In this document: positions 42,656 through 63,623 of the stretch, one piece after another
How positions within the stretch are numbered: the first letter of the stretch is position 1
Layout: each line of letters opens with the position of its first letter
Source of the DNA: a virus
Lineage: Duplodnaviria; Heunggongvirae; Uroviricota; Caudoviricetes
Virus record (IMG/VR): IMGVR_UViG_3300031998_000020
Direction: 5' to 3' (one strand)
DNA length: 64,000 bases
Position numbers and translations under genes: made by a program
Notes under the pieces: model-generated
Told to the model about the DNA's origin: nothing
Database searches by the model: none
The model's input: only the letters and a program-made list of their open reading frames with translations

Positions 42656-42657
42656 AT

Positions 42658-42807: not shown

Positions 42808-42812
42808 TAGAT

Positions 42813-43196: not shown

Positions 43197-43214
43197 AATA
43201 ACGGAGGAATAGAT

Positions 43215-43475
43215 ATGATACCACCAAGTAATTGCCCTTATAAAGATTTGGCAAGCCTTCCTTGTTGGACATGCCAATGGCATAATGCAGACATGGACAC
43301 TTGTAATCTTTCGCTAGGCCATACAGCCTCAAGCATAGGAACGGCTGCAACAATTGCCCAAAGCCAATCTTTTGAAGACAGGCTTAGAGCCTATGAAAAT
43401 GAACGCAAAAAGCTACTTGCGTTATCGAAAGAGGAATTAGTGAATCTAATCATCCATCGTCCTACGTTATATTAA
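43215..43475 (+). CDS. Hypothetical protein.
   Basis: ORF. Confidence 0.4.
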   Translation: MIPPSNCPYKDLASLPCWTCQWHNADMDTCNLSLGHTASSIGTAATIAQSQSFEDRLRAYENERKKLLALSKEELVNLIIHRPTLY

Positions 43476-43488
43476 AAACATTAGAACT

Positions 43489-43986: not shown

Positions 43987-43988
43987 TT

Positions 43989-44411
43989 ATGACACAGGAA
44001 GAAAAAGAACTATTAAAAGACCTCAGTGCAAGGTGGCTGTATGGTACAATTGTATCTGTTACTGACGGAACTATCAAATTTAACGCTTATATTGAATCTG
44101 TTAGCCATAAAAGTATACAAGTTTCACCTGTTAGTGATTCTAATTTTACTGCATATACTTTTTATAAAATAAGTGAAGTTAAGCCATATCTTCGTCCTTT
44201 GTCAGCAATGACAGAGGAAGAACTCATAAACTTGAATTGTATTTGTTATCACAATATCAGTATTCAAGACGATATGCTGTGTGGCTATATATGCTGTGGA
44301 GAGTTGGAGGATGTATTTGATTACCTTAACTCAATCCATGTAGATTATCGAGGATTAATTCCAAAAGGCCTTGCTTTGGAGGCTCCAGAAGACATGTATA
44401 AATTTGAATAA
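43989..44411 (+). CDS. KPYLRP-family protein.
   Basis: MTQEEKELLKDLSARWLYG...VKPYLRPLSAMTEEELINL...VDYRGLIPKGLALEAPEDMY. Confidence 0.75.
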   Translation: MTQEEKELLKDLSARWLYGTIVSVTDGTIKFNAYIESVSHKSIQVSPVSDSNFTAYTFYKISEVKPYLRPLSAMTEEELINLNCICYHNISIQDDMLCGYICCGELEDVFDYLNSIHVDYRGLIPKGLALEAPEDMYKFE

Positions 44412-48429: not shown

Positions 48430-50982
48430 TTACCAATCCGTTATAATCGTCGCATTACTTGCTCCCCATTTATTAGATGGAACTGTACCCTTAAAATATA
48501 TCTTTGTCAAATTAGGACATTGATAGAAAATAGCTTTCTGGGCATTACCTGATGTAATCATGCTTATATTGGGGTTTTCAATCACAATAGAAGCAAGTGA
48601 AGGGCAATTTTTAAAAGCAGCAGTGTTCACTGTTTGTACCGAACTTGGTATCACCATAGCCGTTAGGCCTGAACATCCTTCAAAAGCATTCTCTCCTATA
48701 ATTTCCAAAGAACCTGGTAATTCGACGGTAGTCAAGGAATGACAGTCAAGAAAAGCCCCATTGTCAAGTAATTCCAAAGAATTACCTAATGTAACAGATG
48801 ACAAATTGATACACCAAAAGAATACGTTTTCACCTATACGTGTAACAGAATCAGGGATTGTTATGGAAGTAAGGCTTTCACAGTACATGAATGCACCGTC
48901 ATCAATTTCACTTACGGAATTACCTAAAGTAATAGCAGAAAGTTCAGTACAATCACAAAACGCACTTTCATCAATAAATTCTACTGTGTCAGGTATTGTT
49001 ATATTAGTTATTCCTGTACATCCAGAAAAGGCGTAATATCCAATACTTGTCACAGATGCGCCAAAGGTTATCCCCGTTAAGGACGTACATCCAGCAAACA
49101 TATCTCTTGGAAGTTCAGGAAGAGAATCACCGATAGTTACAGAAGTCAATTTTTTACAGTAAGTAAAATTGCCTGTGCTATTGTATGGCTCTGGCAAAAC
49201 AGTCACATTATCACCTATCACAAGATGTGTTATATTGGTAAAATGGCTAAATTCTATATTAGATGCGTTTGTTACAGAATCGCCAATAATCAATAGCCCA
49301 ACACCTGTCGTATTACCTAAAGTTCGAAAGTTGATATTCGCCGAAGAAGTGTCTACTGTAAGTGTAGTTACGTTAGTACAGCCTGAGAAAGCACCACCCT
49401 CAATTGACGTTACTCCGCTTCCGATATTCAGAGAACTAATACTCGAACAATTAAGGAATGCACATGGGCCAATACTTGTAACTGACTCTGGAATTGACAA
49501 AGTAGTTATTCCCACACAATTAGCAAATACATAGCCACTCAAAGATGTTATGCCATTTGGGATGTTGATAGACGTAACACTTGTACAACCAGAGAATGCA
49601 CCTACTCCGATAGAGGCTACGGTATCTGGAATGGTTATAGCTGACAAACCTGAACATTCAGCAAAAGCACCTTTACCAATATATGTCACAGTATCTGGGC
49701 AAAGCAATTGTGTCAGACTTTCACAATCAAAGAAAGTCATATCACCAATACGTCGTAATTCATTGCCCATTGTCACAGAAGCGAGGTTAGAACAACCTTG
49801 GAATGTTCCCGTCAGACTACTAACTGTGGTTGGTAGAACTATTGAAGTGATACTCGTACAACCAGAGAATGCACCTGTTCCGATATATGTTACTGATTCA
49901 GAAAGATTGATTGACTCCAAACCTGTACAACCACCGAAAGCATAATTACCAAGATATGTGATAGAACTTCCGAGAGTTATACTAGTCAGACTATCACACC
50001 CACAGAAAGCGTTATTCTCTATGTATGTAACACTATCAGGAATTGTAATACTGGATAGGCTAGTGCAATCTGCGAACATTCTATCACTGATATATTCAAG
50101 TTTCTCAGGCATATAAACCTCATTCAGTGCTGAACAGCCAGCAAGCATACTGTTAGGGACATACGTTACTGCACGGCTAAATGACACTTTTGTAATGCCT
50201 GGGTCACGATTGAAAGTGTAGTTTCCAGTAAAGCTGTATTTGGCACCTGCTGGCGAGTTATATGTAACATAACTATCTTCACCTATCTTGGTGAAATTGT
50301 CATGAAAATAATTCATATCGTAATAAACGTTGCCGTTCTCATCGCAAAAATTGCAATCATCCCCATTTACGGCAAGCCCTCTGACTTCTTCTATTGTATC
50401 TAGAAGAGAACCTAAGCCTAGATTGTCCTCTTGTAAAAGGAAACCAAATTCTTCATTATCATTCTCATTAATAAGGAACTTAGCTATCTTCATTTCGGTT
50501 GGTTCATCGACAGTGAGATAATAAAGAACCACGCCATAATATGCGGCATTCTTTGCCCTGTCATAATAGCAGATGCTATATGGGTTTATGGCACGGACTA
50601 TAATGACTGAGACCTCATATTCCGCAAAATCTTCGGCAGTATAATCTTCTGCACTACTTCTTGCCTCTGCTTCATCGTCTGAAATTGGCATCTCGCCATA
50701 CTCTTCGTCATAATATTTATAGAATTCCAAACCGTTCAAGTCATAGTTTGAATCCCTATACCACCAACCACCAGGACCCGTATAGACATTAGTAGGTAAT
50801 ATCCCGTGGAAGTCACCATTCAGTACGATTTTACCTTCACCCCATATTCGGCAAAAAGGCTCTCGATAATATTGTACCGTACTGTCCCCTTTATCATACA
50901 TGACATTATCCTTTGCTTCTGGATAATTGGCACTATCAGAGTACAATCCGTTTTTCAGAGAAAATTTTCTTAACTGTATCAT
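48430..50982 (-). CDS. BspA-type leucine-rich-repeat (LRR_5) surface-protein-like protein, 850 aa.
   Basis: More than 15 tandem units of about 23 aa (I.IPDSVT.IG..AF.GC..L.SI). This is the only large minus-strand gene in the window. Confidence 0.8.
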   Translation of the reverse strand: MIQLRKFSLKNGLYSDSANYPEAKDNVMYDKGDSTVQYYREPFCRIWGEGKIVLNGDFHGILPTNVYTGPGGWWYRDSNYDLNGLEFYKYYDEEYGEMPISDDEAEARSSAEDYTAEDFAEYEVSVIIVRAINPYSICYYDRAKNAAYYGVVLYYLTVDEPTEMKIAKFLINENDNEEFGFLLQEDNLGLGSLLDTIEEVRGLAVNGDDCNFCDENGNVYYDMNYFHDNFTKIGEDSYVTYNSPAGAKYSFTGNYTFNRDPGITKVSFSRAVTYVPNSMLAGCSALNEVYMPEKLEYISDRMFADCTSLSSITIPDSVTYIENNAFCGCDSLTSITLGSSITYLGNYAFGGCTGLESINLSESVTYIGTGAFSGCTSITSIVLPTTVSSLTGTFQGCSNLASVTMGNELRRIGDMTFFDCESLTQLLCPDTVTYIGKGAFAECSGLSAITIPDTVASIGVGAFSGCTSVTSINIPNGITSLSGYVFANCVGITTLSIPESVTSIGPCAFLNCSSISSLNIGSGVTSIEGGAFSGCTNVTTLTVDTSSANINFRTLGNTTGVGLLIIGDSVTNASNIEFSHFTNITHLVIGDNVTVLPEPYNSTGNFTYCKKLTSVTIGDSLPELPRDMFAGCTSLTGITFGASVTSIGYYAFSGCTGITNITIPDTVEFIDESAFCDCTELSAITLGNSVSEIDDGAFMYCESLTSITIPDSVTRIGENVFFWCINLSSVTLGNSLELLDNGAFLDCHSLTTVELPGSLEIIGENAFEGCSGLTAMVIPSSVQTVNTAAFKNCPSLASIVIENPNISMITSGNAQKAIFYQCPNLTKIYFKGTVPSNKWGASNATIITDW

Positions 50983-51690: not shown

Positions 51691-52512
51691 ATGAAAAAAT
51701 TTCTATTAATTTTATCTCTAACGATGACACTTGTCTCGTTGACAAGTTGTCATAGTGTCTCGCCAGATGCGGACGAAGAGGCAGTATTAATCTACAAGCC
51801 ATGGTTTTTTGGGCATGGTGGAGTTGATGACGAGGCCGTTACAAGTGGCCTAACATGGTGTTGGTGGTCAACACATTCAGAGTACTTTAAAATCATCCCA
51901 GTGAAACATCAGGTAAACATGGATGATTTGTTCTCTGATGATAACACACCGTTGGATTTCCATACGATTATCATCACCCAAATCGAGGCAGGTAAGTCTC
52001 CTATCCTACTCAAGAACTATGGTAAGGACTGGTTCAACACTAACATCTATAACTACTATTGTAACCTTGTCCGAGACCATATCTCACAGCATACTCCATT
52101 CGACCTTATGAGCAACCGAGCAATATTGAATGAGATTGACGAAAAGGTGCTAAACCAAATGAAGGAGCACATAGCAAAGTTGTCAAAGGAAAAGGAGTTT
52201 CCAGTATCAATCAAGCAGGTTACTATCGGTAAGGCAACTCCAAACCAAGAGCAGCTTGCAGAGATGAACAAGACCGCAAAGGCTGTTCAGGCGAAGCAGA
52301 CCCAAGAGCGAGAGGCTGAGGTTCAGATGGCCAGGGAAAAAGCTGAAAAACAGAGGGCAAAGGCTGACAAGGCATATCGAGAGTACCTGGGTTTGTCAAT
52401 TCCAGAATTCATCGAGCTACGTAAGTGGGAGGTCATCGAGAAGAAGTCAGGTGCCAATATCGACGTAATCGTTGGCGGTAGCTCTGCATCTATGATGTAT
52501 CCAGTCAAGTAA
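51691..52512 (+). CDS. Lipoprotein with a C-terminal charged coiled-coil.
   Basis: MKKFLLILSLTMTLVSLTSC lipobox; the C-terminus is QEREAEVQMAREKAEKQRAKADKA. Confidence 0.6.
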   Translation: MKKFLLILSLTMTLVSLTSCHSVSPDADEEAVLIYKPWFFGHGGVDDEAVTSGLTWCWWSTHSEYFKIIPVKHQVNMDDLFSDDNTPLDFHTIIITQIEAGKSPILLKNYGKDWFNTNIYNYYCNLVRDHISQHTPFDLMSNRAILNEIDEKVLNQMKEHIAKLSKEKEFPVSIKQVTIGKATPNQEQLAEMNKTAKAVQAKQTQEREAEVQMAREKAEKQRAKADKAYREYLGLSIPEFIELRKWEVIEKKSGANIDVIVGGSSASMMYPVK

Positions 52513-52558
52513 ATTATACTCAAAAGATAAATTCAAATTATTCAATTATACTCAAAAA

Positions 52559-52597
52559 ATCCCCGACAGTAATGTTGGGGATTTTCCTTTTTATTTA
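52559..52597 (+). terminator. Intrinsic terminator (CCCCGAC...GTTGGGG plus T-rich tract).
   Basis: Inverted repeat followed by attttcctttttat. Confidence 0.6.
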
Positions 52598-52692: not shown

Positions 52693-53145
52693 ATGTGTAC
52701 ATACTTAAAGGAAATTGAGCTAAAAACAGCAACCCACGACATAAAAGTGTACAAATTGGTCAAATGGGAAGATGGCAAATTCTTTGCGCCATACAGAAAT
52801 GTAGAATACCCTTCTAACACTCTCCACACAGAACTTGGCAAGGTTGTCACTAATCCGTATTGCTCATCCTATATAATGCAAACAGGTTCATGCTCATTCA
52901 TGTGTAAACATTCAATAAACATAGGATTACACTCATTCAAAAGCAAGTTACACGCCAAGCAAGCACTTAAAAATAAGCCTTGGGAGCCTCATTTCAGGTG
53001 GCTAGTGATAAAGGCAGTCATCCCAAAGGGTAGCCAATACTATGAGGGCTTTAGTGATTATCATGTAGGTGGTTATCTAATAAAGCCTGTCTATGTTTCT
53101 GATAATCTCATATTATATCCAGAAGAGATTATTGCTCAAATGTAA
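52693..53145 (+). CDS. Met-Cys-start family, member F.
   Basis: MCTYLKE...HDIKVYKLV...DGKFFAPYRNVEY...GLHSF...AVIPKGSQYYEG...VSDNLIL. Confidence 0.75.
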   Translation: MCTYLKEIELKTATHDIKVYKLVKWEDGKFFAPYRNVEYPSNTLHTELGKVVTNPYCSSYIMQTGSCSFMCKHSINIGLHSFKSKLHAKQALKNKPWEPHFRWLVIKAVIPKGSQYYEGFSDYHVGGYLIKPVYVSDNLILYPEEIIAQM

Positions 53146-53163
53146 TTAATAAAAGTAAACAAT

Positions 53164-53589
53164 ATGTGTACATTCCTAACAACTCGAAAAAGATATACAG
53201 CCAAAAAGAATATGGTTGTTTATAAAATCCTACGAAAAAAAGATGGTGAGTATTTCGCCCCTTACTACGGCACTTCCTACTCTAGCCACCAGTTGTCTAC
53301 TACTACACTTGGTAATCCACGATTCTATAACAACCCCAGTGTGAGAATGAACTATGGTATATGCCAAGGAATACATTCTTTCAGAACAATTCGGGCAGCA
53401 AAAGATTATTTCAACTCATCAGTCTTAGTGTTCCATGAAGACTTGTTTATCGTCAAGGCAATCGTCCCTAAAGGTTCAAACTACTATCCTGGCTATTATG
53501 ATTCAAAGTCAAGTCTCAAGCCAAATTCAATAGTATCCGATTCTATCCAATTAACCAATGAGGAGATTAAACTATGTGTGCATTCTTAA
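53164..53589 (+). CDS. Met-Cys-start family, member G.
   Basis: MCTFLTT...VVYKIL...DGEYFAPYYGTSY...GIHSF...AIVPKGSNYYPG. Confidence 0.75.
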   Translation: MCTFLTTRKRYTAKKNMVVYKILRKKDGEYFAPYYGTSYSSHQLSTTTLGNPRFYNNPSVRMNYGICQGIHSFRTIRAAKDYFNSSVLVFHEDLFIVKAIVPKGSNYYPGYYDSKSSLKPNSIVSDSIQLTNEEIKLCVHS

Positions 53590-54011
53590 TAGACAACAAA
53601 CCCCATGTTGCCGACAAAGACATAGAAGTCTATAAAATGGTCCTGGAACACAACGGTAAATTCTATGCCCCAATACGTGGAACCTTATACGAATCCAACG
53701 ACCTGTCTTCGGAGTTTGGTGAGGTATACGAGTCAGATTATCGTCAACCAATGAACAATACACCTTTGTTTTGTATAGACAAAGGACTATATTCATACTC
53801 AATGCTTGAAGATGCCAACAGACTCCTTTATGATTTTCAGATTATGGGTGGGTCATGCATAAAATACCGTATAATAAAGGCTATCATCCCGAAAGGTACG
53901 GAATATTATGCAGGGTTCGAGAGCTTCGGTTGTAATAGCCCTCTACTTGTCTCAAAGAGACTGATAATGGACTTTGAGAATATCGTGATTATCAAAGCAT
54001 CCTTGCCTTAA
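53574..54011 (+). CDS. Met-Cys-start family, member H.
   Basis: MCAFLID...DIEVYKMV...GKFYAPIRGTLYES...AIIPKGTEYYAG. Confidence 0.75.
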   Translation: MCAFLIDNKPHVADKDIEVYKMVLEHNGKFYAPIRGTLYESNDLSSEFGEVYESDYRQPMNNTPLFCIDKGLYSYSMLEDANRLLYDFQIMGGSCIKYRIIKAIIPKGTEYYAGFESFGCNSPLLVSKRLIMDFENIVIIKASLP

Positions 54012-54073
54012 GAGGCCAGTGATGTTTTAACATAAATAATTATTAACTCAATTAAAACAAATCATCAATAACA

Positions 54074-54529
54074 ATGTGCACAGTAATACATAATCTCACA
54101 AGAAAGACTGCCCAAGAAGACATCGAAGTATATAAGATTGTCATTATTGTTAATCTGTTTGGCAATTCGCAGATTGTAGCACCATATCGGTACACAGTAT
54201 ACGAATCTAACGATGTACACTCAGAACTCGAAGTGCCAACACCACATGTCGTTGAAACTGGCTGCGCTGGAGAAATGAACACGCATAAAATCGAAATAGG
54301 GCTACATTCCATTAAGAATTTGGACGATGCCAAGAGTATGTTTTTTTGGAGATTTAACAACAGAGGAACTTCACAGTTTAAGCTAATTAAAGCTACCATA
54401 CCAAAGGGAAGTGAATACTATGAGGGCTTCGACTTTATTAATGCCCTTGGTGACTATACATGGCCAATGCTTGTCTCTGACAGACTTATACTACACACCG
54501 ACGAAGTGATAGAATCTTCAAGAATATGA
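54074..54529 (+). CDS. Met-Cys-start family, member I.
   Basis: MCTVIHN...DIEVYKIV...APYRYTVYES...GLHSI...ATIPKGSEYYEG...VSDRLIL. Confidence 0.75.
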   Translation: MCTVIHNLTRKTAQEDIEVYKIVIIVNLFGNSQIVAPYRYTVYESNDVHSELEVPTPHVVETGCAGEMNTHKIEIGLHSIKNLDDAKSMFFWRFNNRGTSQFKLIKATIPKGSEYYEGFDFINALGDYTWPMLVSDRLILHTDEVIESSRI

Positions 54530-54557
54530 TTCATAAGGCCAAGCAATTGGCCTTTTT
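54530..54557 (+). terminator. Intrinsic terminator (GGCCAA-gcaa-TTGGCC plus T6).
   Basis: Perfect 6-bp stem, GNRA-type loop, T-run. Confidence 0.7.
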
Positions 54558-54602
54558 TGTTAAAAATACTTAATAAATTTGGCGATTAGGAATATTATCG
54601 TT
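54552..54602 (+). promoter_or_regulatory. Bacteroidota-type promoter (TTTG 54568; TATCTTTG 54592).
   Basis: ttgttaaaaatacttaataaatttggcg ... TAtcTTTG. Confidence 0.6.
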
Positions 54603-54644
54603 ATCTTTGCAACAAATTAAAATATATTACATTAAAATAGAGAT

Positions 54645-54950
54645 ATGAATATGATATATTATTTAGCAAAAGATTGCGACAAGGAAGGTAGGATATGCCT
54701 CTTTCAGACTGAGCCTGACAAGATAGGCGATTTGTGGTTTGCACATTCAGCAGGTGACGGATTCATTGATGTCACGGAGTCTTTCTTACCTCAAAAAGGC
54801 AAAGAAGCTTTCCTTAAGGAAATCGAGGTGAAACCTGTTCGTGTTGAAATAAAACTCACGCAGGACATGGTATGCTACTTAAACCTATTACAAACAGTAA
54901 AGGATGCAACAGGGATTAATATTCCCACAAAAGATAAAGCCTCAGAATGA
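54645..54950 (+). CDS. Hypothetical protein.
   Basis: ORF after the promoter. Confidence 0.45.
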   Translation: MNMIYYLAKDCDKEGRICLFQTEPDKIGDLWFAHSAGDGFIDVTESFLPQKGKEAFLKEIEVKPVRVEIKLTQDMVCYLNLLQTVKDATGINIPTKDKASE

Positions 54951-55150
54951 GTATGACACAAGCAAAGTTAGAACTAGGGCATACACTAGCAGAAATTGAC
55001 AATGGTATGCCTAATGGTATGCTTACAGATTGCGAGGCATACGGAATGTGTGGCGGTTGTGATGAATATTGCCCTGTTCTCAGAGCAGGAAAATGTGAGT
55101 TACAAGATACAGACAATGCAGAACTTTACAAAAAATCAATGGAGGGATAA
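54947..55150 (+). CDS. Small Cys-rich protein.
   Basis: CEAYGMCGGCDEYCPVLRAGKC. Confidence 0.4.
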   Translation: MSMTQAKLELGHTLAEIDNGMPNGMLTDCEAYGMCGGCDEYCPVLRAGKCELQDTDNAELYKKSMEG

Positions 55151-55153
55151 ATT

Positions 55154-55558
55154 ATGAATTGGACAAATTTAGAACAAAGTAAGAAATTTTTAGCTTTGGG
55201 AGTAAATCCCCAAAGCGCAGATATGGGTATCTGTGTATGTGTCGATGATACGGAAAGGTATTTGCCGATAGATGATTGGGACTTGCCCAAGAATGGCGAA
55301 GATGGCACGAAATTTTATCCAAGTTGGAGTGTTGGCGCATTAATTGACTTAATGCCACTATGCATAGGAGAATCTGCACCATTTTTTTTGCATGTAACAA
55401 ATTCATATGTAGAATATGCTAATGCAATAAAAGGCGTAGGAATTTATTATTCAGCAGGAACAAACGGATTGATTGATGCTTGCTTTAAGATGGTGGTATG
55501 GCTGATTGAAAACAAATACATCAAAGTAAAGGAGCAGAATGTCGAAACGGAGGAGTAA
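55154..55558 (+). CDS. SKKLAEIL-family protein (divergent member).
   Basis: NLEQSKKFLALGVNPQSADMGI...PSWSVGALIDLMP...GLIDACFKMVVWLIEN. Confidence 0.6.
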   Translation: MNWTNLEQSKKFLALGVNPQSADMGICVCVDDTERYLPIDDWDLPKNGEDGTKFYPSWSVGALIDLMPLCIGESAPFFLHVTNSYVEYANAIKGVGIYYSAGTNGLIDACFKMVVWLIENKYIKVKEQNVETEE

Positions 55559-55560
55559 AT

Positions 55561-56088
55561 ATGAGTAAGACAGACAGCTTGCACTATCAACTATGCTGTG
55601 AAGGAGCCAAGTGGTTACGCAGACAGAAAAAGAATAACGAGCGTTGTCGGAAGAAATCATGCTTTCGCACAGAGGCTTGCGGTTGCTGCTTCAAGTACAA
55701 GTATGTAGCCGTAGAATTATGCACATGGAATAGCGAGAATACCGATGTTTGGGGGTTAGGCAATTTCAGTGACAGTGTCGTAATTGAGGTAAAGACATCT
55801 CACTCTGACTTCCTTGCAGATAGAAAGAAGTGGTGTAGGAGCGAATATGCCGAGACCTCTGGTCTGCAAGCTGGCAGGTTACGGTGGTATCTATGTCCAG
55901 AAGGTGTCATCAGTAAGGATGAATTACCTGATAGATGGGGTCTTCTGTATTGGGACGGGAAGAAAGTCTATCCTGTTGTGGCTCCGAAGAAGTTCGAGAA
56001 TACAGGTTGGGCAGATATAGATATACTCACAAGTATCTTGAGACGTGAAGGCTTCAAGGAGGGAATTTTCAACTATAGACAAAAATAA
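55561..56088 (+). CDS. Cys-rich protein with a possible PD-(D/E)xK-like nuclease motif (SDSVVIEVK).
   Basis: D...EVK triad seen, with short spacing; assignment is speculative. Confidence 0.45.
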   Translation: MSKTDSLHYQLCCEGAKWLRRQKKNNERCRKKSCFRTEACGCCFKYKYVAVELCTWNSENTDVWGLGNFSDSVVIEVKTSHSDFLADRKKWCRSEYAETSGLQAGRLRWYLCPEGVISKDELPDRWGLLYWDGKKVYPVVAPKKFENTGWADIDILTSILRREGFKEGIFNYRQK

Positions 56089-56094
56089 ATAAGT

Positions 56095-56505
56095 ATGAAA
56101 GCGACAGAATCACAAATAGGCGATTGGGTAACTGGTAAAAAATGGAAAGAAAAACCATTCCAGATTACTCGTATTAATGATAATGGGAAATTTTATTATG
56201 GTGTTACGGCAAAAGGGACATTGGTTGGACCTTTTCTTGTTGAAGATTTAGAGACTATCCCTCTCACGTCTGAAATACTTGAAAAGAACGGATTTGAATT
56301 GCGTGATGGTTTCTTATTCCATAGGATAGATGACAAACCACATCATTATGATTTCAAGTTAAAAAATAGCGGTGTTTATTCCTCTGAGGGTTATACATTA
56401 GAATGTGGTATATATCTTCTGACTATCAGTTATGTGCATGAACTCCAACATGCACTCAGGCTATGTGGCCTGTTTGAGTTGGCTGACAATTTAAAACTAG
56501 AATAG
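56095..56505 (+). CDS. GDWV/HELQHALR-family protein.
   Basis: SQIGDWVTGKKW...ETIPLTSEILEKNGF...VHELQHALRLCGLFELADNLKLE. Confidence 0.7.
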   Translation: MKATESQIGDWVTGKKWKEKPFQITRINDNGKFYYGVTAKGTLVGPFLVEDLETIPLTSEILEKNGFELRDGFLFHRIDDKPHHYDFKLKNSGVYSSEGYTLECGIYLLTISYVHELQHALRLCGLFELADNLKLE

Positions 56506-56507
56506 TT

Positions 56508-56927
56508 ATGACACAGGAAGATAAAAAGTTAGTACTGCAAGACCTTTGTGCTCGTTTGCCGTATGGGGTAAAAGTTAAAATCAGAAGCAACGATATACGC
56601 ACAGTAAGAACAATAAATATCGAGGAAGAAATTGTGACTTTTTTTGAAATAGACACGATTTCTCTGTTTGGCTCGCATATTGAAAACACTCTAACTCTTA
56701 GACAACAAGTTAAGCCATACCTTCGTCCAATGTCAAGCATGACTGAGGAAGAAATGGAACGCTTGACAGATACACATAGCTTACTATCGGCAAATGGAAT
56801 ACCCAATAATGTTTGCTGTACGGTTGAGGGCATGGATTATCTCAATTCAATCCATGTTGATTACCGAGGATTAATCCCGATGGGTCTTGCTCTAGAGGCT
56901 CCAGAGGGTATGTATAACATTGAATAA
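56508..56927 (+). CDS. KPYLRP-family protein.
   Basis: MTQEDKKLVLQDLCARLPYGVKV...VKPYLRPMSSMTEEEMERL...VDYRGLIPMGLALEAPEGMY. Confidence 0.75.
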   Translation: MTQEDKKLVLQDLCARLPYGVKVKIRSNDIRTVRTINIEEEIVTFFEIDTISLFGSHIENTLTLRQQVKPYLRPMSSMTEEEMERLTDTHSLLSANGIPNNVCCTVEGMDYLNSIHVDYRGLIPMGLALEAPEGMYNIE

Positions 56928-56933
56928 ACCACT

Positions 56934-57290
56934 ATGACCCAGGAAGAAAAAAATATATTAGTACAAGACATTTGTGGAAGACTCACTTATGGAGTGATAC
57001 TTAGAATAGCTGGCCATAATGTTAAAATGACTACCAATAATACTTGGGTATATTTTGGTGCCAGTGATGAAGCTAAAGAATATATCAAGCCTTATTTACG
57101 TCCAATGTCAAGCATGACAGAGGACGAGAAAGTAGAATATAAACACTTAGTTTCTTTTAGCGGTAGTTCTAACGGAGCATTGGACTTTGTTAATTGGCTC
57201 AATGCACACCATCTTGACTACAGAGGCTTAATCCCAATGGACCTTGCTCTAGAGGCTCCAGAAGATATGTATAATTCACAAAAGGAATAA
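56934..57290 (+). CDS. KPYLRP-family protein.
   Basis: MTQEEKNILVQDICGRLTYG...IKPYLRPMSSMTEDEKVEY...LDYRGLIPMDLALEAPEDMY. Confidence 0.75.
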   Translation: MTQEEKNILVQDICGRLTYGVILRIAGHNVKMTTNNTWVYFGASDEAKEYIKPYLRPMSSMTEDEKVEYKHLVSFSGSSNGALDFVNWLNAHHLDYRGLIPMDLALEAPEDMYNSQKE

Positions 57291-57293
57291 ACT

Positions 57294-57791
57294 ATGGAAG
57301 CATGGATAACATATGAAAAAGGCAAGTTTTATTTGTGCAAAAATATAATACTTGCTAAAAAAGGTTGGGAAGGTGAGGGTGTAATGGCTGTTTTGTCCGA
57401 AGAAGACCTTCCAGAAGGTTACACCCCTCAAGAAGAGCCTGTTGCAGTTGAATTTCATCTTCAACCAAGAGGAAGAAAAGAATTGATAAAATACGACCCC
57501 TCACATGTAGATTATAATCCTTATGAGCCAAATCCAAAGCCATATAAATATACTGCTAAAAGCTTAGCTGATATAATTCCTTTTGGAAAATATAAAGGCA
57601 AAAGCCTTAAAGAAGTTTTGGATAAAGGTCAGTGGAGGTATATCCATTGGTTAAATAGTGAAAATATTGTATATTACCCTCGCTCTCTAGAAAATGATAT
57701 ACACGCTGCTTCATATGTAATAGCAAACTACCACTGGCCAGACCCTGATTATTTTGACTATGAATATAATGTTGATGCTTCATATAGTTAG
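57294..57791 (+). CDS. DUF3820-like protein (FGKYKGK.L.EV......YI.WL motif).
   Basis: IIPFGKYKGKSLKEVLDKGQWRYIHWL. Confidence 0.5.
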   Translation: MEAWITYEKGKFYLCKNIILAKKGWEGEGVMAVLSEEDLPEGYTPQEEPVAVEFHLQPRGRKELIKYDPSHVDYNPYEPNPKPYKYTAKSLADIIPFGKYKGKSLKEVLDKGQWRYIHWLNSENIVYYPRSLENDIHAASYVIANYHWPDPDYFDYEYNVDASYS

Positions 57792-57811
57792 TATTTGATA
57801 CCAAAAGGTCT

Positions 57812-57852
57812 TGCTATTAAAGCAGTCACCAAGTAAATGTGATTGCTTTTTT
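57812..57852 (+). terminator. Intrinsic terminator (GCAGTCAC...GTGATTGC plus T7).
   Basis: 8-bp stem with one GU, followed by a T-run. Confidence 0.6.
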
Positions 57853-57857
57853 TGTTA

Positions 57858-57905
57858 AATATTGTTAAGAAATTTGGTAATCTGAAACAATTTCATTACC
57901 TTTGC
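57858..57905 (+). promoter_or_regulatory. Bacteroidota-type promoter (TTTG 57873; TACCTTTG 57896).
   Basis: attgttaagaaatttggtaat ... TAccTTTG. Confidence 0.65.
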
Positions 57906-57935
57906 AACAAAACCAAAATAATAGCAAAATAACAT

Positions 57936-58340
57936 ATGACACAGGAAGAACAAAAAATATTACTGCAAGACCTTTGCGCACGTCTGCCACACGATGTGAA
58001 TGTATGGGTGAAAACTCATCATGGCCAAATCATTGAATCTGATATTTTGACCTTATGCAATGGTGGGGGATATTATTCCACGTTAACCTATGAGGGAATT
58101 ATGAATGATTCTGTGGTTAAGCCATACCTCAGACCATTCTCAGAAATGACAGAGGAAGAGAAGAAAGAATACAAAGACTTACTCTATTGTGTTAAGTATG
58201 CAGATGATACAGTCTTAGCAGTTAATATGCTTACTGATTGGCTCAATGCACATCACTTTGATTATCGTGGCCTAATCCCAATGGGTCTTGCACTAAAGGC
58301 TCCAGAGGGAATGTATAATGTGGTAAACGAAAGTGAGTAG
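57936..58340 (+). CDS. KPYLRP-family protein.
   Basis: MTQEEQKILLQDLCARLPHD...VKPYLRPFSEMTEEEKKEY...FDYRGLIPMGLALKAPEGMY. Confidence 0.75.
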   Translation: MTQEEQKILLQDLCARLPHDVNVWVKTHHGQIIESDILTLCNGGGYYSTLTYEGIMNDSVVKPYLRPFSEMTEEEKKEYKDLLYCVKYADDTVLAVNMLTDWLNAHHFDYRGLIPMGLALKAPEGMYNVVNESE

Positions 58341-58370
58341 TAACAGACTATAATACACTAACAGAAAATT

Positions 58371-58550
58371 ATGCTAAAAAGAACAAACATGCCACCGTTG
58401 GGAGTAAAGCCAAGATGGATAATAGAGGAAGAAAGGATAAAGGAATTGCAAGATGCTATTAAGAGGTTTCTTGATGCAAACTGGCCGATTCCTGATGAAG
58501 TATTCAAGGAGTACAATGCCTTGACACAACGTTTAGAGATAGAGGAATAA
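58371..58550 (+). CDS. Small hypothetical protein (59 aa).
   Basis: Fills a gap; ends ...IEE with a GAGGAATAAATATG junction. Confidence 0.3.
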   Translation: MLKRTNMPPLGVKPRWIIEEERIKELQDAIKRFLDANWPIPDEVFKEYNALTQRLEIEE

Positions 58551-58552
58551 AT

Positions 58553-59041
58553 ATGACCAGAAAAGAAGAAATACAACATAAAGCAGACGAAATATTCAGA
58601 AAAGGTGATTTTGGTTTATTGTCTGATTATGAAGTAGCCACACACGTTGCAACTGAAACAGCAGAGTGGGCAGACAAGACCATGCTTGACAAAGTTTGTG
58701 ACTATCTGTCAAAATTGAAATTTTGCAAGCTATCGTCAATAGCTAGTGTCTCCAATATGCCAGTATTCTCAGAAGAGGACATCGAAAAACTGCGCAAAGC
58801 AATGGAGGAAATCGATATTCCTATGGTATCCCCCTCTGCAATGGATTTGCAAACATATCTCAATAATTCTGCACCTTGTAGTCATTGCATATTTTTCAAA
58901 GACTTGAAATGTACATTTCCTGAGAATAAAAAGAAAGAATGCAGTCAGGAACTGGGTACTATTAAAGGCTGGAATACCAAAGAATACCAAAGAATACCAA
59001 AGGATATCGACGTAAATCTTATTAAGGAACAGTTATGCTAA
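58553..59041 (+). CDS. AEWADKTMLDK-family protein (longer paralog of 6969..7229).
   Basis: About 85% nt identity with 7075-7225. Confidence 0.6.
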   Translation: MTRKEEIQHKADEIFRKGDFGLLSDYEVATHVATETAEWADKTMLDKVCDYLSKLKFCKLSSIASVSNMPVFSEEDIEKLRKAMEEIDIPMVSPSAMDLQTYLNNSAPCSHCIFFKDLKCTFPENKKKECSQELGTIKGWNTKEYQRIPKDIDVNLIKEQLC

Positions 59042-59199
59042 CATTAACAAAAAAATGGAGTAATGAGCACATAGGCTTTAAAATCCTCCTTAATGACAGT
59101 GTTCTATTCACTGTGGAAGATAATGACGTGCTTAGGCATGTAGGTGAGTGTTTAATAAAACTTAGTGAAACCGAAGGAAATGATTCATTGTCTGTTTGA
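59035..59199 (+). CDS. Small hypothetical protein (54 aa).
   Basis: ATGCTAA overlap with the upstream stop; weak support. Confidence 0.25.
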   Translation: MLTLTKKWSNEHIGFKILLNDSVLFTVEDNDVLRHVGECLIKLSETEGNDSLSV

Positions 59200-59249
59200 G
59201 AATAGGATGTGCTTGAATAAGGAATATATAACTTTAATTAACAAAAAGT

Positions 59250-59681
59250 ATGCTTACAGTACAAGACTTAATGATGGGTGATTGGGTACGAATCACCATT
59301 GAAGGACATAGGTACCCAGCTTACGTAAATTTTCTCAAATACTACACAGAAGAAATAGGTGTAGCATATCTCGCTGCCCCAGGAGATTGGGAGGATGGTG
59401 ATGGATATGACGATATTGAACCCATACCACTCACTCCTGAGATACTGGAGTTGAATGGGTTTAAAGGTACGGCAGGACGGACTGTCTGGGAAATGGAGAT
59501 AAACAAAAAGTATATTAACATTTGGGGTACGCATGCGCTTTCTTTTTCGATGAATGTCCCATACCTTCTTGGGTATAAATGGATAATACAAGATTTACCG
59601 ATTAATTACGTTCATGAGTTGCAACATCTATTGAGACAATGTGGCTTCACCGAACTGGCAAATGACTTCAAAGTAGAATAA
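59250..59681 (+). CDS. GDWV/HELQHALR-family protein.
   Basis: LMMGDWVRITIEG...EPIPLTPEILELNGF...VHELQHLLRQCGFTELANDFKVE. Confidence 0.7.
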   Translation: MLTVQDLMMGDWVRITIEGHRYPAYVNFLKYYTEEIGVAYLAAPGDWEDGDGYDDIEPIPLTPEILELNGFKGTAGRTVWEMEINKKYINIWGTHALSFSMNVPYLLGYKWIIQDLPINYVHELQHLLRQCGFTELANDFKVE

Positions 59682-59683
59682 CT

Positions 59684-60010
59684 ATGCACACAAATGACAA
59701 GGAAATACTTCAAAGCAAGATTAATGACAGGTCAATTACTTCTGACGATTTAATGTTTGGAAGAAAGATGCCTTTCGGTAAATATAAAGGGCAATTTATC
59801 TATTGGCTTGTTGTTAAGCATCCCTATTATGTGAATTGGATAATCAACCACACCAAATTCACATTCACAGACACGGAAATATGGCTTCATAAAGAATGTC
59901 TGGACGAATTATGGTTAGGGAATTTGAATGGTCTTATATATGACCTTTCTAAGCAAGTCCAAAAACTTGGTTCCTTGCCAGAAAGTAACCCTCATTATAT
60001 AGTAGAATAG
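59684..60010 (+). CDS. DUF3820-like protein.
   Basis: KMPFGKYKGQFIYWLVVKHPYYVNWI. Confidence 0.5.
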   Translation: MHTNDKEILQSKINDRSITSDDLMFGRKMPFGKYKGQFIYWLVVKHPYYVNWIINHTKFTFTDTEIWLHKECLDELWLGNLNGLIYDLSKQVQKLGSLPESNPHYIVE

Positions 60011-60012
60011 AT

Positions 60013-60237
60013 ATGGTTAAAATTAAATTTGAACTTATCGACGAACTCAAAACAGCAGTGAAGAATACTGCTAGTGAAGCTGCGGTGGAATACTATAGAC
60101 AAAATGGTATTCTAAATACACCTGCTCCTTGGTATGAAAAGGGAAAGGCTGCTTTGTCAAGAGAGTTAGAGCGTAAAATGCTAATAGCAATCAATAATGC
60201 AATCGCTGATGTATTCGAGGACTTGAATGTGGGCTAA
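60013..60237 (+). CDS. Hypothetical small protein.
   Basis: ORF. Confidence 0.4.
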   Translation: MVKIKFELIDELKTAVKNTASEAAVEYYRQNGILNTPAPWYEKGKAALSRELERKMLIAINNAIADVFEDLNVG

Positions 60238-60273
60238 TCCTTAAAGAAAAAATCAATTCAAATAAAAAACATC

Positions 60274-60537
60274 ATGAAGAAATTCTTTATAATAATCCTT
60301 TGTTCTCTTCTATGCATGTCATGTGAAGAAAAGAAGAACGAGAAGTGTGAATTGGTATATACCATCTATTGGCCAGGCAATACCAAAACATATACAAAAA
60401 TTGTTGAAGGTGATGTGTATCTAATCTCACATAGAGGTACTAACCGTCTGAAAGTGGGCGGTATATGTATTGAACAAACCACCGCACCTATCGAAATCGT
60501 CTCATATAAGAAGATAGCAACCCAACATAATGAGTAA
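60274..60537 (+). CDS. Small lipoprotein (CMSC lipobox).
   Basis: MKKFFIIILCSLLCMSC. Confidence 0.5.
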   Translation: MKKFFIIILCSLLCMSCEEKKNEKCELVYTIYWPGNTKTYTKIVEGDVYLISHRGTNRLKVGGICIEQTTAPIEIVSYKKIATQHNE

Positions 60538-60556
60538 ATAACAAGAAATAAACGAT

Positions 60557-60823
60557 ATGGTACCAACAATAATTATTTTCTCTATGTTACTCATCGTCCT
60601 TGTAGGATTGGTGTACGCTTTCAAGGCAACAACCTTCACTGTGAAGGATGCTTACGATATTAAATACGATGGCAAGTACCTCACTTTCAAAACCAAAAGC
60701 AGAAAGAAAGTACACTCTTGGAAATTCAAGGGCGAATGTACAGTCTGGCACTACGAAAGTGGCGAAAGATGTGACACACTACTTGAATGTGTCTTATGTG
60801 ATATCTGGCAACAAACACAATAG
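60557..60823 (+). CDS. Small membrane-anchored protein.
   Basis: MVPTIIIFSMLLIVLVGLVYAF. Confidence 0.45.
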   Translation: MVPTIIIFSMLLIVLVGLVYAFKATTFTVKDAYDIKYDGKYLTFKTKSRKKVHSWKFKGECTVWHYESGERCDTLLECVLCDIWQQTQ

Positions 60824-60828
60824 CAATT

Positions 60829-61293
60829 ATGAGTAAAACCCACAATACCAAGCATGAGTACTTGGAGAGAATGAAGGTTGAATTTCCGAATGGTTTACCT
60901 GCTGAGACTCACAAATGCTTCAATGATGAGACAATAGTAACTCGTAAGGAAATCAAACCTGGAGAAACTGACACTACTGATTGGTCTCATTCAGTATGGG
61001 AAAAAGGCGATTGGAGAAAAGCGGAGAAGGAAGCTCAGATGGCCACTTCAAGGCATCCGAATGGTAAAAGGAAAAAGTCATCCTTAACCAAGGAATATAA
61101 GGGCAAAAAGTACTTCACAATCAATAAGAGAACCATAAACAGGTTCGGCCCTCACAATAGAACATCCAAATGCCATAACAACCGAAATACTAAACGAGGT
61201 GTGTCACGAACCATTCGTTGCACTCAAAGGGAAATGGTTAGAAAAATCATTGATGATGGCATAAACGAAATAAACGAAAATAACAAAAAATAA
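60829..61293 (+). CDS. Highly basic hypothetical protein.
   Basis: K/R/N-rich C-terminal half. Confidence 0.45.
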   Translation: MSKTHNTKHEYLERMKVEFPNGLPAETHKCFNDETIVTRKEIKPGETDTTDWSHSVWEKGDWRKAEKEAQMATSRHPNGKRKKSSLTKEYKGKKYFTINKRTINRFGPHNRTSKCHNNRNTKRGVSRTIRCTQREMVRKIIDDGINEINENNKK

Positions 61294-61298
61294 TCACT

Positions 61299-61694
61299 AT
61301 GTGTACATTCGTAATAGACCGTAAACTTAAAACGGCAGAAGAAGACATAAAGGTGTACAAGGTAATACAAGTCAAAAGCGATGGATTCTACGCACCCTAT
61401 CAGGGGGTAAAATATTCCTCCAACGAAATAACATCAGAAGACAGTCTTAAGTTAGAAACTATTGTCATGGAATCATACGGAGAATCACACTGTATAATTG
61501 AGCAAGGAATACATTCGTATGCACATCTTGAAGATGCCTGTGTTTATCTACCTTGGGATTGGATTACGGTAGAAGCAACTATCCCAAAGGGTACAAAATA
61601 CTATAAAGGATATGACCGAATCGACAACAAAAGAGAAACCTATGTCTCAGAGAAGCTGATTATCCACCCTGACAAAGTAAGAACATTAGATTAA
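61299..61694 (+). CDS. Met-Cys-start family, member J.
   Basis: MCTFVID...DIKVYKVI...DGFYAPYQGVKYSS...GIHSY...ATIPKGTKYYKG...VSEKLII. Confidence 0.75.
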   Translation: MCTFVIDRKLKTAEEDIKVYKVIQVKSDGFYAPYQGVKYSSNEITSEDSLKLETIVMESYGESHCIIEQGIHSYAHLEDACVYLPWDWITVEATIPKGTKYYKGYDRIDNKRETYVSEKLIIHPDKVRTLD

Positions 61695-61711
61695 TTAAAT
61701 CATAAACTATT

Positions 61712-62209
61712 ATGTGCTGCTATTTCACTACCCCAAAGTTACAAAAGTCTGATAAAGACATTACGGTATATAAGCTGGTCTACAAATCTAAGGACGGCCA
61801 GCTTTATGCACCATTCCGACGTACAAGATATAGTTTGTCAGACAGCCTCTATTCAAAACTTGGCAGACCTCATAAGATAGACGTGTATACATGTGACAAT
61901 CCTACTAAGCTATTCAGGTGCTTTAAAGTATCACTAGGATTACACACATTCAAATTCAAGGGTGATGCTATAAGGTGGATGGATAAAAACTTTATGCTAT
62001 CCCAAGAGCACCAAATTATAAAGGCTACCATACCCAAGGGGACTATGTATTATGAAGGCTTCTGGGACTATGATGGTAAAAAGCTCAAAACAAGGACATT
62101 TGTCTCAGAAAAACTCATATTACATCCTGAAAAGGTGGTAATGGATAGGCCAATCAAACATCTCGAAGTGAATACCAAACTTTGGGCATTCAACTCAAGT
62201 AATATATAA
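61712..62209 (+). CDS. Met-Cys-start family, member K.
   Basis: MCCYFTT...DITVYKLV...DGQLYAPFRRTRYS...GLHTF...ATIPKGTMYYEG...VSEKLIL. Confidence 0.75.
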   Translation: MCCYFTTPKLQKSDKDITVYKLVYKSKDGQLYAPFRRTRYSLSDSLYSKLGRPHKIDVYTCDNPTKLFRCFKVSLGLHTFKFKGDAIRWMDKNFMLSQEHQIIKATIPKGTMYYEGFWDYDGKKLKTRTFVSEKLILHPEKVVMDRPIKHLEVNTKLWAFNSSNI

Positions 62210-62219
62210 TAAGAACATC

Positions 62220-62921
62220 ATGTGTACATATTTAACAGACTATATCCAGAAAAGGGCAAGTGAGGATGTTAAAGCCTACAAGGTGGTAATGATAAAAGAC
62301 GGGAAATACTATGCCCCGTACAGGAGAACCGTATACTCATCCAATGTCATAACAGCATCCATAGGCGTAGAAAAAATACCTTATGGGAAAAGAGTCGTTC
62401 AAGAGGGAATACATACGTTCAAATACCTCGAAGATGCAGTCAGCACTGCTGCATTGCTTAAATCCGAAGAAGTCAAGAGCGACTTTCATGTCATAGAATG
62501 CATAATACCAGAAGGTGCATACTATTACTGGGGATATCAGACATGTCTATACAAGACACGTACATACGTAGCAGACAAGGTTGTGATGGATTATAGCCGT
62601 CACCTTGACAATCTGGCTGAATACGACGAATTATGGCAAGAGATGAACCGTCTGTATCAAAATGACACGAAATATAAGGGAATTCCTATCATCATAGTAC
62701 AACCTGTACTATATAAGCTTGCCAGCAGGAACATTAAACCAGAACCGAGAGAATTATTGGATATGGTAATACCACTCACAACGCAATATGATTGCTTGAT
62801 AAGGTGGATTGGTGATGATAGTGAATTTGAACACTACACCATAAACAAATCATTTGAAAACAAACTATGGCAAGAGTATTTGACAAAATACAATATCCAT
62901 CCACAGGAAATATATAATTAA
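62220..62921 (+). CDS. Met-Cys-start family, member L (with a C-terminal extension).
   Basis: MCTYLTD...DVKAYKVV...DGKYYAPYRRTVYSS...GIHTF...CIIPEGAYYYWG. Confidence 0.75.
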   Translation: MCTYLTDYIQKRASEDVKAYKVVMIKDGKYYAPYRRTVYSSNVITASIGVEKIPYGKRVVQEGIHTFKYLEDAVSTAALLKSEEVKSDFHVIECIIPEGAYYYWGYQTCLYKTRTYVADKVVMDYSRHLDNLAEYDELWQEMNRLYQNDTKYKGIPIIIVQPVLYKLASRNIKPEPRELLDMVIPLTTQYDCLIRWIGDDSEFEHYTINKSFENKLWQEYLTKYNIHPQEIYN

Positions 62922-62933
62922 AATAAAATCATC

Positions 62934-63623
62934 ATGTGCGCAATAATAGAACATAACAACAAAATCCAAACAGCTCAGAACGACATAGAGGTATATAAAG
63001 TAGTTTGGGTAAAAGACAATGGATACTATGCGCCCTATCAGGGCACACCATACCAATCAGAAAAGGTCACTGCACAGTTAGGTAAACTGTTTACATGCAC
63101 AGCAGGAAAAGGGATAGATGAGGGTCTCCATAGCTTTATGAAACTCGTAGATGCCATGGAATGTGCCTTTGCCTTTAATAAGGCAGCTATCCAGCCAAAT
63201 CTTATAGTAAGTGAGGACTATGAAGTTTCACTATTCAATCGGAACTATCATGTCGTAAAGGCCATCATACCAAAAGGAAGCCATTATTACGAAGCTGTAA
63301 CAGGTTCATCATACAAACCGACATATGTCTCCGACCAACTGGTAATGGACTTCAATTCATATCTCAACAAAGACCTGCCAGAAATCTATATAGGACAAAC
63401 CCCATATAGCGACCGAATGTCTTCCAACTTCGACTACAAGACATTCACAGGAAATGTGTACAAGCTCACAGAACTCGGTATTAAAAGACTAGTAAGAGAA
63501 CTAGTTTGTATTGGTTCTGATATACTGGATAAAGATGTCTACCTCAACCCAGACAATCATCTGGCATACCCAGTGAATATCTCCAACTCACAATACGGAA
63601 CAACATATCATATATATGATTAA
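62934..63623 (+). CDS. Met-Cys-start family, member M (with a C-terminal extension).
   Basis: MCAIIEH...DIEVYKVV...NGYYAPYQGTPYQS...GLHSF...AIIPKGSHYYEA...VSDQLVM. Confidence 0.75.
   Translation: MCAIIEHNNKIQTAQNDIEVYKVVWVKDNGYYAPYQGTPYQSEKVTAQLGKLFTCTAGKGIDEGLHSFMKLVDAMECAFAFNKAAIQPNLIVSEDYEVSLFNRNYHVVKAIIPKGSHYYEAVTGSSYKPTYVSDQLVMDFNSYLNKDLPEIYIGQTPYSDRMSSNFDYKTFTGNVYKLTELGIKRLVRELVCIGSDILDKDVYLNPDNHLAYPVNISNSQYGTTYHIYD

Follow-up and report, generated by a model that had tools for sequence, protein, structure and literature searches.

A phage protein family with an invariant Met-Cys start, frequent tandem arrays and a predicted ADP-ribosyltransferase fold

Copies in the window and their relatives in other phages

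The 64,000-nt stretch of the Caudoviricetes record IMGVR_UViG_3300031998_000020, which was analysed as a whole and is referred to here as the window, carries a family of paralogous proteins that begin with Met-Cys. The initial annotation had listed thirteen such open reading frames (ORFs), and the family has proved to be real: all thirteen ORFs are found on the plus strand at the claimed starts, all of them are homologous, and every one opens with Met-Cys. The hidden Markov model (HMM) of the family returned exactly these thirteen copies from the window (E ≤ 50, filters off). The ATG of the Met-Cys start is the first ATG, GTG or TTG past the upstream in-frame stop in 12 of the 13 copies; a possible upstream GTG, at position 30650, exists only in the member beginning at 30731. 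The proposed location of the family in a phage accessory region is likewise supported. No known family or fold had been recognised from the letters of the DNA. The copies belong to phrog_13450 (PHROG, function unknown), which was matched by all ten members tested with E values from 1.4e-10 to 1.6e-18, and their predicted fold is that of an ADP-ribosyltransferase (ART).

The copies, which are named by the position of their first nucleotide, form two quartets, a tandem pair and three singletons. The singletons are located at 1149–1577 (142 amino acids (aa), MCLI), 17201–17623 (140 aa, MCLV; family HMM E 4e-33) and 30731–31231 (166 aa, MCLY, with the variant IPHT; E 4e-29). The pair consists of 18620–19177 (185 aa, MCLL, IPRG variant; E 4e-30) and 19180–19776 (198 aa, MCLV, IPKY variant; E 4e-32). 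Quartet 1 begins with 52693–53145 (150 aa, MCTY; phrog_13450 E 7e-16) and continues with three copies recognised by the family HMM, 53164–53589 (141 aa, MCTF), 53574–54011 (145 aa, MCAF, GLYS) and 54074–54529 (151 aa, MCTV). The second and third genes of this quartet, 53164 and 53574, overlap by 16 nt (53574–53589). Quartet 2 opens with the smallest copy, 61299–61694 (131 aa, MCTF), which was the first to be modelled. It is followed by 61712–62209 (165 aa, MCCY) and 62220–62921 (233 aa, MCTY, IPEG variant, with a C-terminal extension of ~95 aa), both recognised by the family HMM, and by 62934–63623 (229 aa, MCAI, with an extension of ~90 aa; phrog_13450 E 1.6e-18). The extensions at the C-terminus of the long copies are specific to the lineage and have no second domain in common.

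Quartet 1 (52693–54529) is flanked on both sides by terminator-like hairpins on the plus strand, one with a 13-bp stem and a T run upstream (52556–52585) and one with an 8-bp stem and a T run directly past the last copy (54535–54554). Quartet 2 starts 5 nt past the ORF 60829–61293, too close to it for a separate promoter. Promoter-like sites occur in the window at chance level (54 versus 46 ± 7 in shuffled sequences). The two tandem quartets described at the outset are therefore present, but the assignment of a separate promoter to each of them is only partly borne out.

The columns invariant in the thirteen copies are M1, C2, Y20, K21, G78 and P111, and the near-invariant ones are P33, H80, I110, Y116, Y117, G119 and S136 (numbering of member 52693). 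The His of the G[LIF]HS motif is present in 12 of the 13 copies and is replaced by Tyr (GLYS) in member 53574. The motifs originally quoted for the family fit the eight quartet copies best, whereas the five other copies deviate from them with the forms KCYK, GFHA, IPRG, IPKY and IPHT; "PKG" is found in 10 of the 13 copies. The size of 130–165 aa had to be corrected to 131–233 aa. Pairwise identity amounts to 19–44% over all copies, with 29–44% within the eight quartet copies, 21–34% among the five dispersed copies and 19–32% between the two groups. The copies are either old or fast-evolving.

An exhaustive profile search over 1.84 billion cluster representatives (clusters at 50% identity) yielded 12,262 representatives at E ≤ 1e-3 and 8,771 at E ≤ 1e-10. 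Nearly all homologs have a single domain and a length of 115–165 aa, and their match begins at residue 1. Only 46 proteins were obtained in another homolog search, for which a profile of 134 sequences was used. Loci were gathered by IUPAC patterns for C/A/M-I-I-P-K-G-x-x-Y, and every place examined is a phage or phage-like contig, mostly of 85–400 kb. In a motif scan of a one-genome-per-species collection, the only occurrences of the family were on a few contigs of metagenome-assembled genomes, and these contigs are probably phage DNA that was binned with the genomes. The family is apparently restricted to phages. Scans of the members with Pfam, NCBIfam and PADLOC gave no significant family. 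Searches of PDB sequence profiles with 13- and 134-sequence alignments yielded nothing but spurious matches caused by the IPKG motif (EVH1, a Fab, Tpz1). The literature searched, including that on DUF7666, on phage ARTs with an N-terminal cysteine and on the Xanthomonas phage Xoo-sp13, contained no description of the family.

Tandem arrays are the rule in the family, with up to seven copies per locus of ≤15 kb, and in many large phage genomes the family has expanded to 5–13 copies. Megablast of the 40–64 kb part of the window against GenBank phages gave no match, and the sole match of tblastn was Xoo-sp13. This cultured phage carries at least eight copies, which are annotated as "hypothetical" or are without annotation; its tandem copies lie near the genome end (MN047793.1, locus L055, 658–4515). 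One Xoo-sp13 copy, at locus position 3613–4047 (approximately 304977–305411 of the record, complement), is without any annotation. Several coding sequences of this phage (Xoosp13_397–399) are annotated from starts downstream of the Met-Cys codon, and their products are consequently truncated in the deposited record. Sister phage contigs, in which the product of the first-array gene is 95% identical to that of the window, contain 3+3 copies versus 4+4 in the window. This indicates a fast turnover of the array content and fits the arms-race expansion suggested in the initial annotation.

The conservation of single residues was counted over 284 distinct near-full-length sequences and is given in the numbering of member 61299, which is used from here on. 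Cys2 is present in 283 of them, and Lys21 and Pro96 in all 284. His72 is found in 279 sequences, the remainder having Tyr. Gly70 is conserved in 277 sequences and Gly98 in 266, followed by Tyr101 (261; 92%), Ser117 (261) and Lys97 (260). Residue 118, the acidic position of the originally quoted VS[DE] motif, is Asp in 48%, Asn in 29%, Lys in 7% and Glu in 6% of the sequences. The catalytic reading first proposed for Cys2 had been made dependent on its conservation outside this genome. In a larger set with added loci, Met-Cys stands at profile position 1 in 507 of 508 full-length copies. Cys2 and the His are both retained well beyond this genome, so that the reading is not refuted by this condition. 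Cys2 is encoded by TGT in 78 and by TGC in 19 cases, and the third codon is widely variable. The use of both Cys codons next to a variable third codon points to selection at the protein level. A nucleotide-level cause of the conserved ATG-TGY start is ruled out by the same two features.

Multi-domain fusions are rare among the homologs from the representative search. One of them (P0070, 488 aa) is a fusion of four domains in which Met-Cys is found on the first repeat only. This shows that the Cys is tied to the N-terminal position and is not needed for the fold. The first repeat of P0070 has Asn instead of the His. In a two-domain fusion (P0071, 287 aa), an internal "...EEMCLIV" opens the second repeat, an indication that the genes fused recently or that the assembly contains a frameshift. 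Removal of the initiator Met before Cys is expected from the specificity of methionine aminopeptidase.

Predicted fold and putative active site

Member 61299 and the distant member 1149 were modelled with AlphaFold. The models are of high confidence, with a mean predicted local distance difference test (pLDDT) score of 92.9 and a predicted template modelling (pTM) score of 0.86 for 61299, and with 91.3 and 0.83, respectively, for 1149. Both consist mostly of beta structure, the core domain having a single short helix, and both have the split beta-sheet core of the ART fold. The N-terminal block is modelled at pLDDT 92 and forms a strand. The structural matches (paired match values in brackets) include BC2332 (5.5 / 7.5), KptA/Tpt1 (5.2 / 5.8), Arr (4.4 / 5.5), AcrF11 (5.0 / 4.9) and Tne2 (5.7 / 4.7). 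The models also match TreX/TreTu, Tse6, diphtheria toxin, PARPs, RES toxins, pertussis- and cholera-type toxins, DarT and CC0527. The 60 matches listed for each of the two models include no N-terminal nucleophile (Ntn) hydrolase, glutamine amidotransferase (GATase), SRAP or Hint structure. An identity with Hint domains or inteins was rejected on the predicted fold.

Within the ART superfamily, the predicted fold is nearest to that of the BC2332-like, KptA/Tpt1 and Arr proteins, which belong to its H-Y-[EDQ]/H-H-h side. BC2332 (PDB 2AUA; SCOP d.166.1.6) is a bacterial protein of 210 aa that shares the fold with the family at an identity of 12–13%, and no sequence or profile link between the two was found. 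BC2332 is not known to have an N-terminal Cys. The BC2332-like and CC0527-like proteins are families of the SCOP ADP-ribosylation superfamily (PMC3000352), and the site of BC2332 matches that of diphtheria toxin (PMC3024214). With respect to the H-H-h and H-Y-D enzymes KptA/Tpt1 and Arr, hhalign of the family against the KptA encoded in the window gave a probability of 0.1%, and the family lacks the N-terminal RNA lobe and the R-H-R-R tetrad of KptA. To our knowledge, Cys2 and Lys21 have no counterpart in the catalytic motifs of KptA/Tpt1 or Arr. AcrIF11, a phage anti-CRISPR ADP-ribosyltransferase, shows no sequence similarity to the family, and we know of neither an invariant N-terminal Cys nor a comparable tandem-array expansion in AcrIF11. 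The only trace of a curated ART family in Pfam was a sub-threshold match to ADPrib_exo_Tox (E 0.07) in one of 56 members. A sequence or profile link to such a family was not found with Pfam, NCBIfam, PADLOC, PDB profiles or hhalign against KptA. According to a survey, viral ARTs fall into 16 previously defined ART families, of which N4-like, PART, ORF28 and p0068-like are named for the HY-[EDQ] clade (PMC9503650). The present family is not obviously included in these four.

The uncharacterised phage and bacterial domain DUF7666 of Pfam is probably a sister family without the Cys2 segment. Weak Pfam matches to it were obtained in 4 of 56 members, the best with 15.8 bits and E 0.02, in comparison with a gathering threshold of 27 bits. 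A Foldseek search of viral models returned family members in other phages and a DUF7666 protein of Pseudomonas phage PspYZU05, the latter with a probability of 0.99 to the family model. The Y-K, Y..G..Y and G-F-H motifs of DUF7666 are paired by hhalign with the N-terminal half of the family, at a probability of only 18%. The sequence of the single DUF7666 protein inspected begins with the Y-K motif and is without the 16-residue N-terminal segment that carries Cys2. A DUF7666 gene also lies inside one of the array regions (L008:2424–3017). Further Foldseek matches in BFVD are a 147-aa protein of Salmonella phage 38 named "RIIB lysis inhibitor" (probability 0.97), a "lysis inhibitor" of Aeromonas phage 65.2 (0.85) and several Edafosvirus proteins (0.97–0.99).

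In the H-Y-E ARTs, the motif H-[GS]-[ST] is followed by a helix, a strand, [KR]-G-x-Y-[FY], and then by the acid with x-hydrophobic-hydrophobic after it. The second of these motifs reads [KR]-G-[FI]-Y-[FSI] in diphtheria toxin, exotoxin A and PARP1, and the acid stands in E-x-I-V/L. The family has the series G-x-H72-[SAT] and a helix, a strand ending in P-K-G, x-Y101-Y102-x-G, and S-[DN]118-x-L-I. From the order and the local context of these motifs, we infer a correspondence between the two series.

Coevolution was analysed by mean-field direct coupling analysis (DCA) of 467 sequences (effective sequence number, Meff, 415), and couplings among invariant columns were ignored as artefacts. The top couplings include S73–S117, T99–E118, G104–T114 and I71–L120. 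They place His72 opposite residue 118 across the strand, on the same face of the sheet as Tyr102 and Tyr74. Strong couplings were also obtained between residue 3 and Gly104 (rank 4 overall), Val116 and Thr114. This puts the N-terminal peptide on the face of His72, two to four residues along the strands. The separation of Cys2 and His72 derived from the DCA geometry is ~8–17 Å, which places Cys2 in the neighbourhood of the pair His72 and Asp118. The strand pairings are resolved by the DCA, the distance between Cys2 and His72 only within this range.

Neighbouring genes and other features of the window

A gene for a microbial-type poly(ADP-ribose) glycohydrolase (PARG), a macrodomain protein outside the family, starts 10 nt past member 1149 (1587–2366, plus strand; PF10021, E 5.8e-21). 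Its signature motifs, PGGSF...AQEE and GAFGCGVFGN, are intact. The gene of an RlaP nucleotidyltransferase (15431–16759, plus strand; E 4.5e-20) ends 442 nt upstream of member 17201. A KptA/Tpt1 RNA 2'-phosphotransferase ORF, placed from its N-terminal sequence, lies at 10133–10657 on the plus strand (PF01885, E 1.6e-43). The window also contains an NT5C nucleotidase ORF, and its mapping, probably to 27360–27932 on the minus strand, is a guess. Taken together, KptA, RlaP and NT5C make up an RNA-repair and nucleotide module in the accessory region of the window.

Similar genes accompany the family elsewhere. An ADP-ribosylglycohydrolase (ARH) gene is located 0–430 nt from the arrays in six related phage contigs. 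At one locus, the gene for a NadM-like NMNAT-Nudix protein directly adjoins an array with six or more tandem copies. RlaP is encoded within 0.1–4 kb of family members in four phages and recurs near family members in three phages other than that of the window (L013, L002 and L010). A gene for a 2H phosphoesterase is adjacent in one phage. Among 137 genes taken as a control from more distant positions in the same loci, the families shown included no ARH. Isochorismatase-like ORFs were observed a few kb from loci with ARH and an array (L004:2623–3213, L021:10357–10920 and L024:6977–7540). They are possibly PncA-type nicotinamidases, an assignment based on one Pfam match in the control set and on sequence resemblance. 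Loci with ARH and an isochorismatase-like ORF look like small NAD/ADP-ribose islands.

Several other gene groups were noted in the window. Three paralogs, the number counted by Pfam, are of the YdcK-type beta-solenoid or bactofilin-like kind, and each is situated within ~0.3–2 kb of a dispersed family member (1149, 30731 and 17201). Two of them are mapped, to 2394–3320 and 29345–30427, and the third, probably at 14594–15418 on the plus strand, was deduced from a similar N-terminus. At least three further multi-copy paralog families were recognised by their N-termini on the plus strand of the regions 33700–44400 and 55150–59700. Proteins with the N-terminus "MTQEEK..L..DL..RLPYG" begin at 36333, 41826, 42813, 43989, 56508, 56934 and 57936, those with "MK..ELQIGDWV" at 35047, 40854, 43489, 56095 and 59250, and those with "..SKKLAEILPLESADM" at 40537, 41509, 55154 and 33732. 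There is also a trio at 37345, 38233 and 39676, the last two of which open with "MKELSIE.K.KRY..AL". The only large minus-strand gene of the window, 48430–50982, encodes 850 aa. Its product is presumably the BspA-type leucine-rich-repeat protein (LRR_5, E 2.3e-153), a hint of a Bacteroidota-type host. Near this gene there are lipoprotein-like signal peptides with a terminal Cys, for example in an SPFH/Band 7 protein (51691–52512).

Interpretation and alternatives

We propose, with a probability of roughly 0.45, that the copies represent a new phage-specific, Cys2-bearing clade of the ART fold that binds NAD+ or ADP-ribose, uses Cys2 and Lys21 in its chemistry and has rapidly diversified into a set of effectors for host takeover or anti-defence. 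The analysis shows the homology, the conservation, the predicted fold, the organisation and turnover of the arrays and the genes next to them, whereas the use of NAD+, the role of Cys2 and the effector function are what we infer on top of these. According to this proposal, NAD+ or an ADP-ribose-type ligand would be held by His72 of G-x-H-[SAT], by Tyr101 and Tyr102 of P-K-G-S-x-Y-Y, and by Asp or Asn118 of S-[DN]-x-L-I. Cys2 and Lys21 would be contributed by the family-specific N-terminal module. Once the initiator Met is removed, Cys2 would become the free N-terminal residue and might act directly in the chemistry, either as a nucleophile or as an ADP-ribosyl acceptor. The copies may serve as early or accessory effectors whose targets in the host or its defences have come to differ through diversification in tandem arrays. 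Where an ADP-ribose eraser (PARG or ARH) is encoded next to them, as in some phages, it could reverse or restrain them.

Several observations weigh against this proposal. His72, Tyr101 and Asp118 were assigned to an H-Y-E triad by motif order and local context, not by superposition. The variability of residue 118 (mainly Asp or Asn, rarely Glu, at times Lys) means that no invariant acid occupies the position; this would be unusual for the catalytic glutamate of an ART, and a role in orienting the His fits at least as well. The residues that are truly invariant, Cys2, Lys21 and Pro96, are not canonical ART residues, and the strand order His, 118, Tyr may not agree with the canonical arrangement. 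The genomic context is affected as well. The six contigs with ARH belong to one ARH lineage and therefore amount to essentially one conserved linkage. The enrichment in the neighbourhood is modest, and the control set also held NAD synthase, isochorismatase and RlaP. The association with NAD/ADP-ribose and RNA-repair islands is therefore suggestive, not statistically compelling.

The points concerning residue 118 bear directly on the main rival explanation, in which the copies are NAD+-independent thiol enzymes on an ART-like scaffold, such as a deamidase, a peptidase or an acyl- or glycosyltransferase. Cys2 would then act as the nucleophile and His72, oriented by residue 118, as the base, which corresponds to the Cys-His dyad of the initial annotation placed in another fold. 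At the sequence level, the conservation pattern is compatible with that idea and has a triad-like hierarchy, with Cys in 100%, His in 98% and Asp, Asn or Glu at the third position in 82%. The DCA sets His72 opposite residue 118 and residue 3 on the same sheet face, and the N-terminal strand is confidently modelled; the hierarchy and the adjacency of His72 and 118 fit a thiol enzyme at least as well as they fit H-Y-E. However, the strict position 2 of the Cys stays unexplained unless a free alpha-amine is also required, the coevolution geometry brings Cys2 only to the above-mentioned distance of His72, and the PARG, ARH and NadM neighbours are left without explanation. We regard such an enzyme as possible and, on balance, unlikely. 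The copies could also have no catalytic activity and act as pseudo-ARTs that bind a host protein or a NAD-derived molecule, as inhibitors or sponges, with paralogs diversified per target and with the invariant residues serving folding or ligand binding. Their small size, standalone and arrayed organisation and high divergence would agree with this, as would the variable residue at the expected position of the catalytic acid and the intactness of member 53574 despite the loss of its His. On the other hand, the absolute conservation of Cys2, Lys and His at 20–30% identity is more typical of chemistry than of binding, and such a constellation of residues is not usually kept on the surface of a diversifying binder. 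We consider a non-catalytic role of this kind rather unlikely.

A different use of the N-terminal residue is known from SRAP proteins (YedK/HMCES, PF02586), in which Cys2 becomes the N-terminal residue, acts together with a conserved His and forms a thiazolidine with a sugar aldehyde. The family resembles them in the invariant Met-Cys, the conserved His and the acid or amide. The resemblance is one of chemistry only, as no SRAP profile or fold match was found for the family, and SRAP is a possible mechanistic analogue. An aldehyde trap of this type would employ the alpha-amine and the thiol of the N-terminal Cys to form a thiazolidine with a ring-opened sugar, and its candidate targets are free or protein-linked ADP-ribose, a NAD-derived immune signal, or an abasic site in DNA or RNA. 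The predicted fold, which is typical of ADP-ribose-binding proteins, and the nearby genes for ADP-ribose erasers and NAD salvage speak in its favour. It is also known that an N-terminal Cys conjugates non-enzymatically to free ADP-ribose (PMC11664928), and a conserved Cys has been proposed to cross-link the ribose of ADP-ribose in the ARG-associated protein ARPP (PMC9503650). Nevertheless, a single-turnover covalent mechanism is costly and adduct formation is purely putative, so that we consider the trap distinctly improbable. Quite improbable, in our estimation, is a combination of the two ideas, an ART-fold domain with SRAP-like chemistry in which Cys2 together with His72, Asp118 and Lys21 would covalently trap the ribose C1'' of NAD+, ADP-ribose or a NAD-derived immune signal as a thioglycoside or a thiazolidine.

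The kinship with Ntn hydrolases or class II glutamine amidotransferases, suggested in the initial annotation with Cys2 as the N-terminal nucleophile, fails on the predicted fold. These enzymes have an N-terminal Cys that is exposed by removing what precedes it, as would be expected in the family, and the invariant Met-Cys start followed by a hydrophobic beta-strand would suit them. The predicted fold, however, differs from their four-layer alpha-beta-beta-alpha sandwich, and the domain of ~130 aa is about half their size. The family has a conserved His and Lys, and the His has no part in the Ntn mechanism. Neither Pfam (GATase or Ntn) nor the other sequence and structure comparisons gave a match to these enzymes, and a relationship with them is highly improbable.

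The family, which comprises 12,262 clusters and is represented neither in Pfam nor in NCBIfam but solely by a PHROG without an assigned function, is among the larger unannotated families of phage proteins. The assignment to the ART fold, together with the conserved N-terminal Cys, the Lys and the His, turns it into a directly testable candidate, and it could represent a new host-takeover or anti-defence mechanism based on NAD+ or ADP-ribose. DUF7666 would also gain a functional lead. If covalent capture by Cys2 were true, the copies would be phage effectors of a new class, self-modifying or acting as a "covalent sponge", that are reset or controlled by PARG or ARH enzymes encoded next to them. 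If Cys2 is catalytic or an ADP-ribose acceptor, the family would present an unusual active-site solution in a well-studied enzyme superfamily and would widen the known range of NAD+/ADP-ribose conflicts between phages and bacteria.

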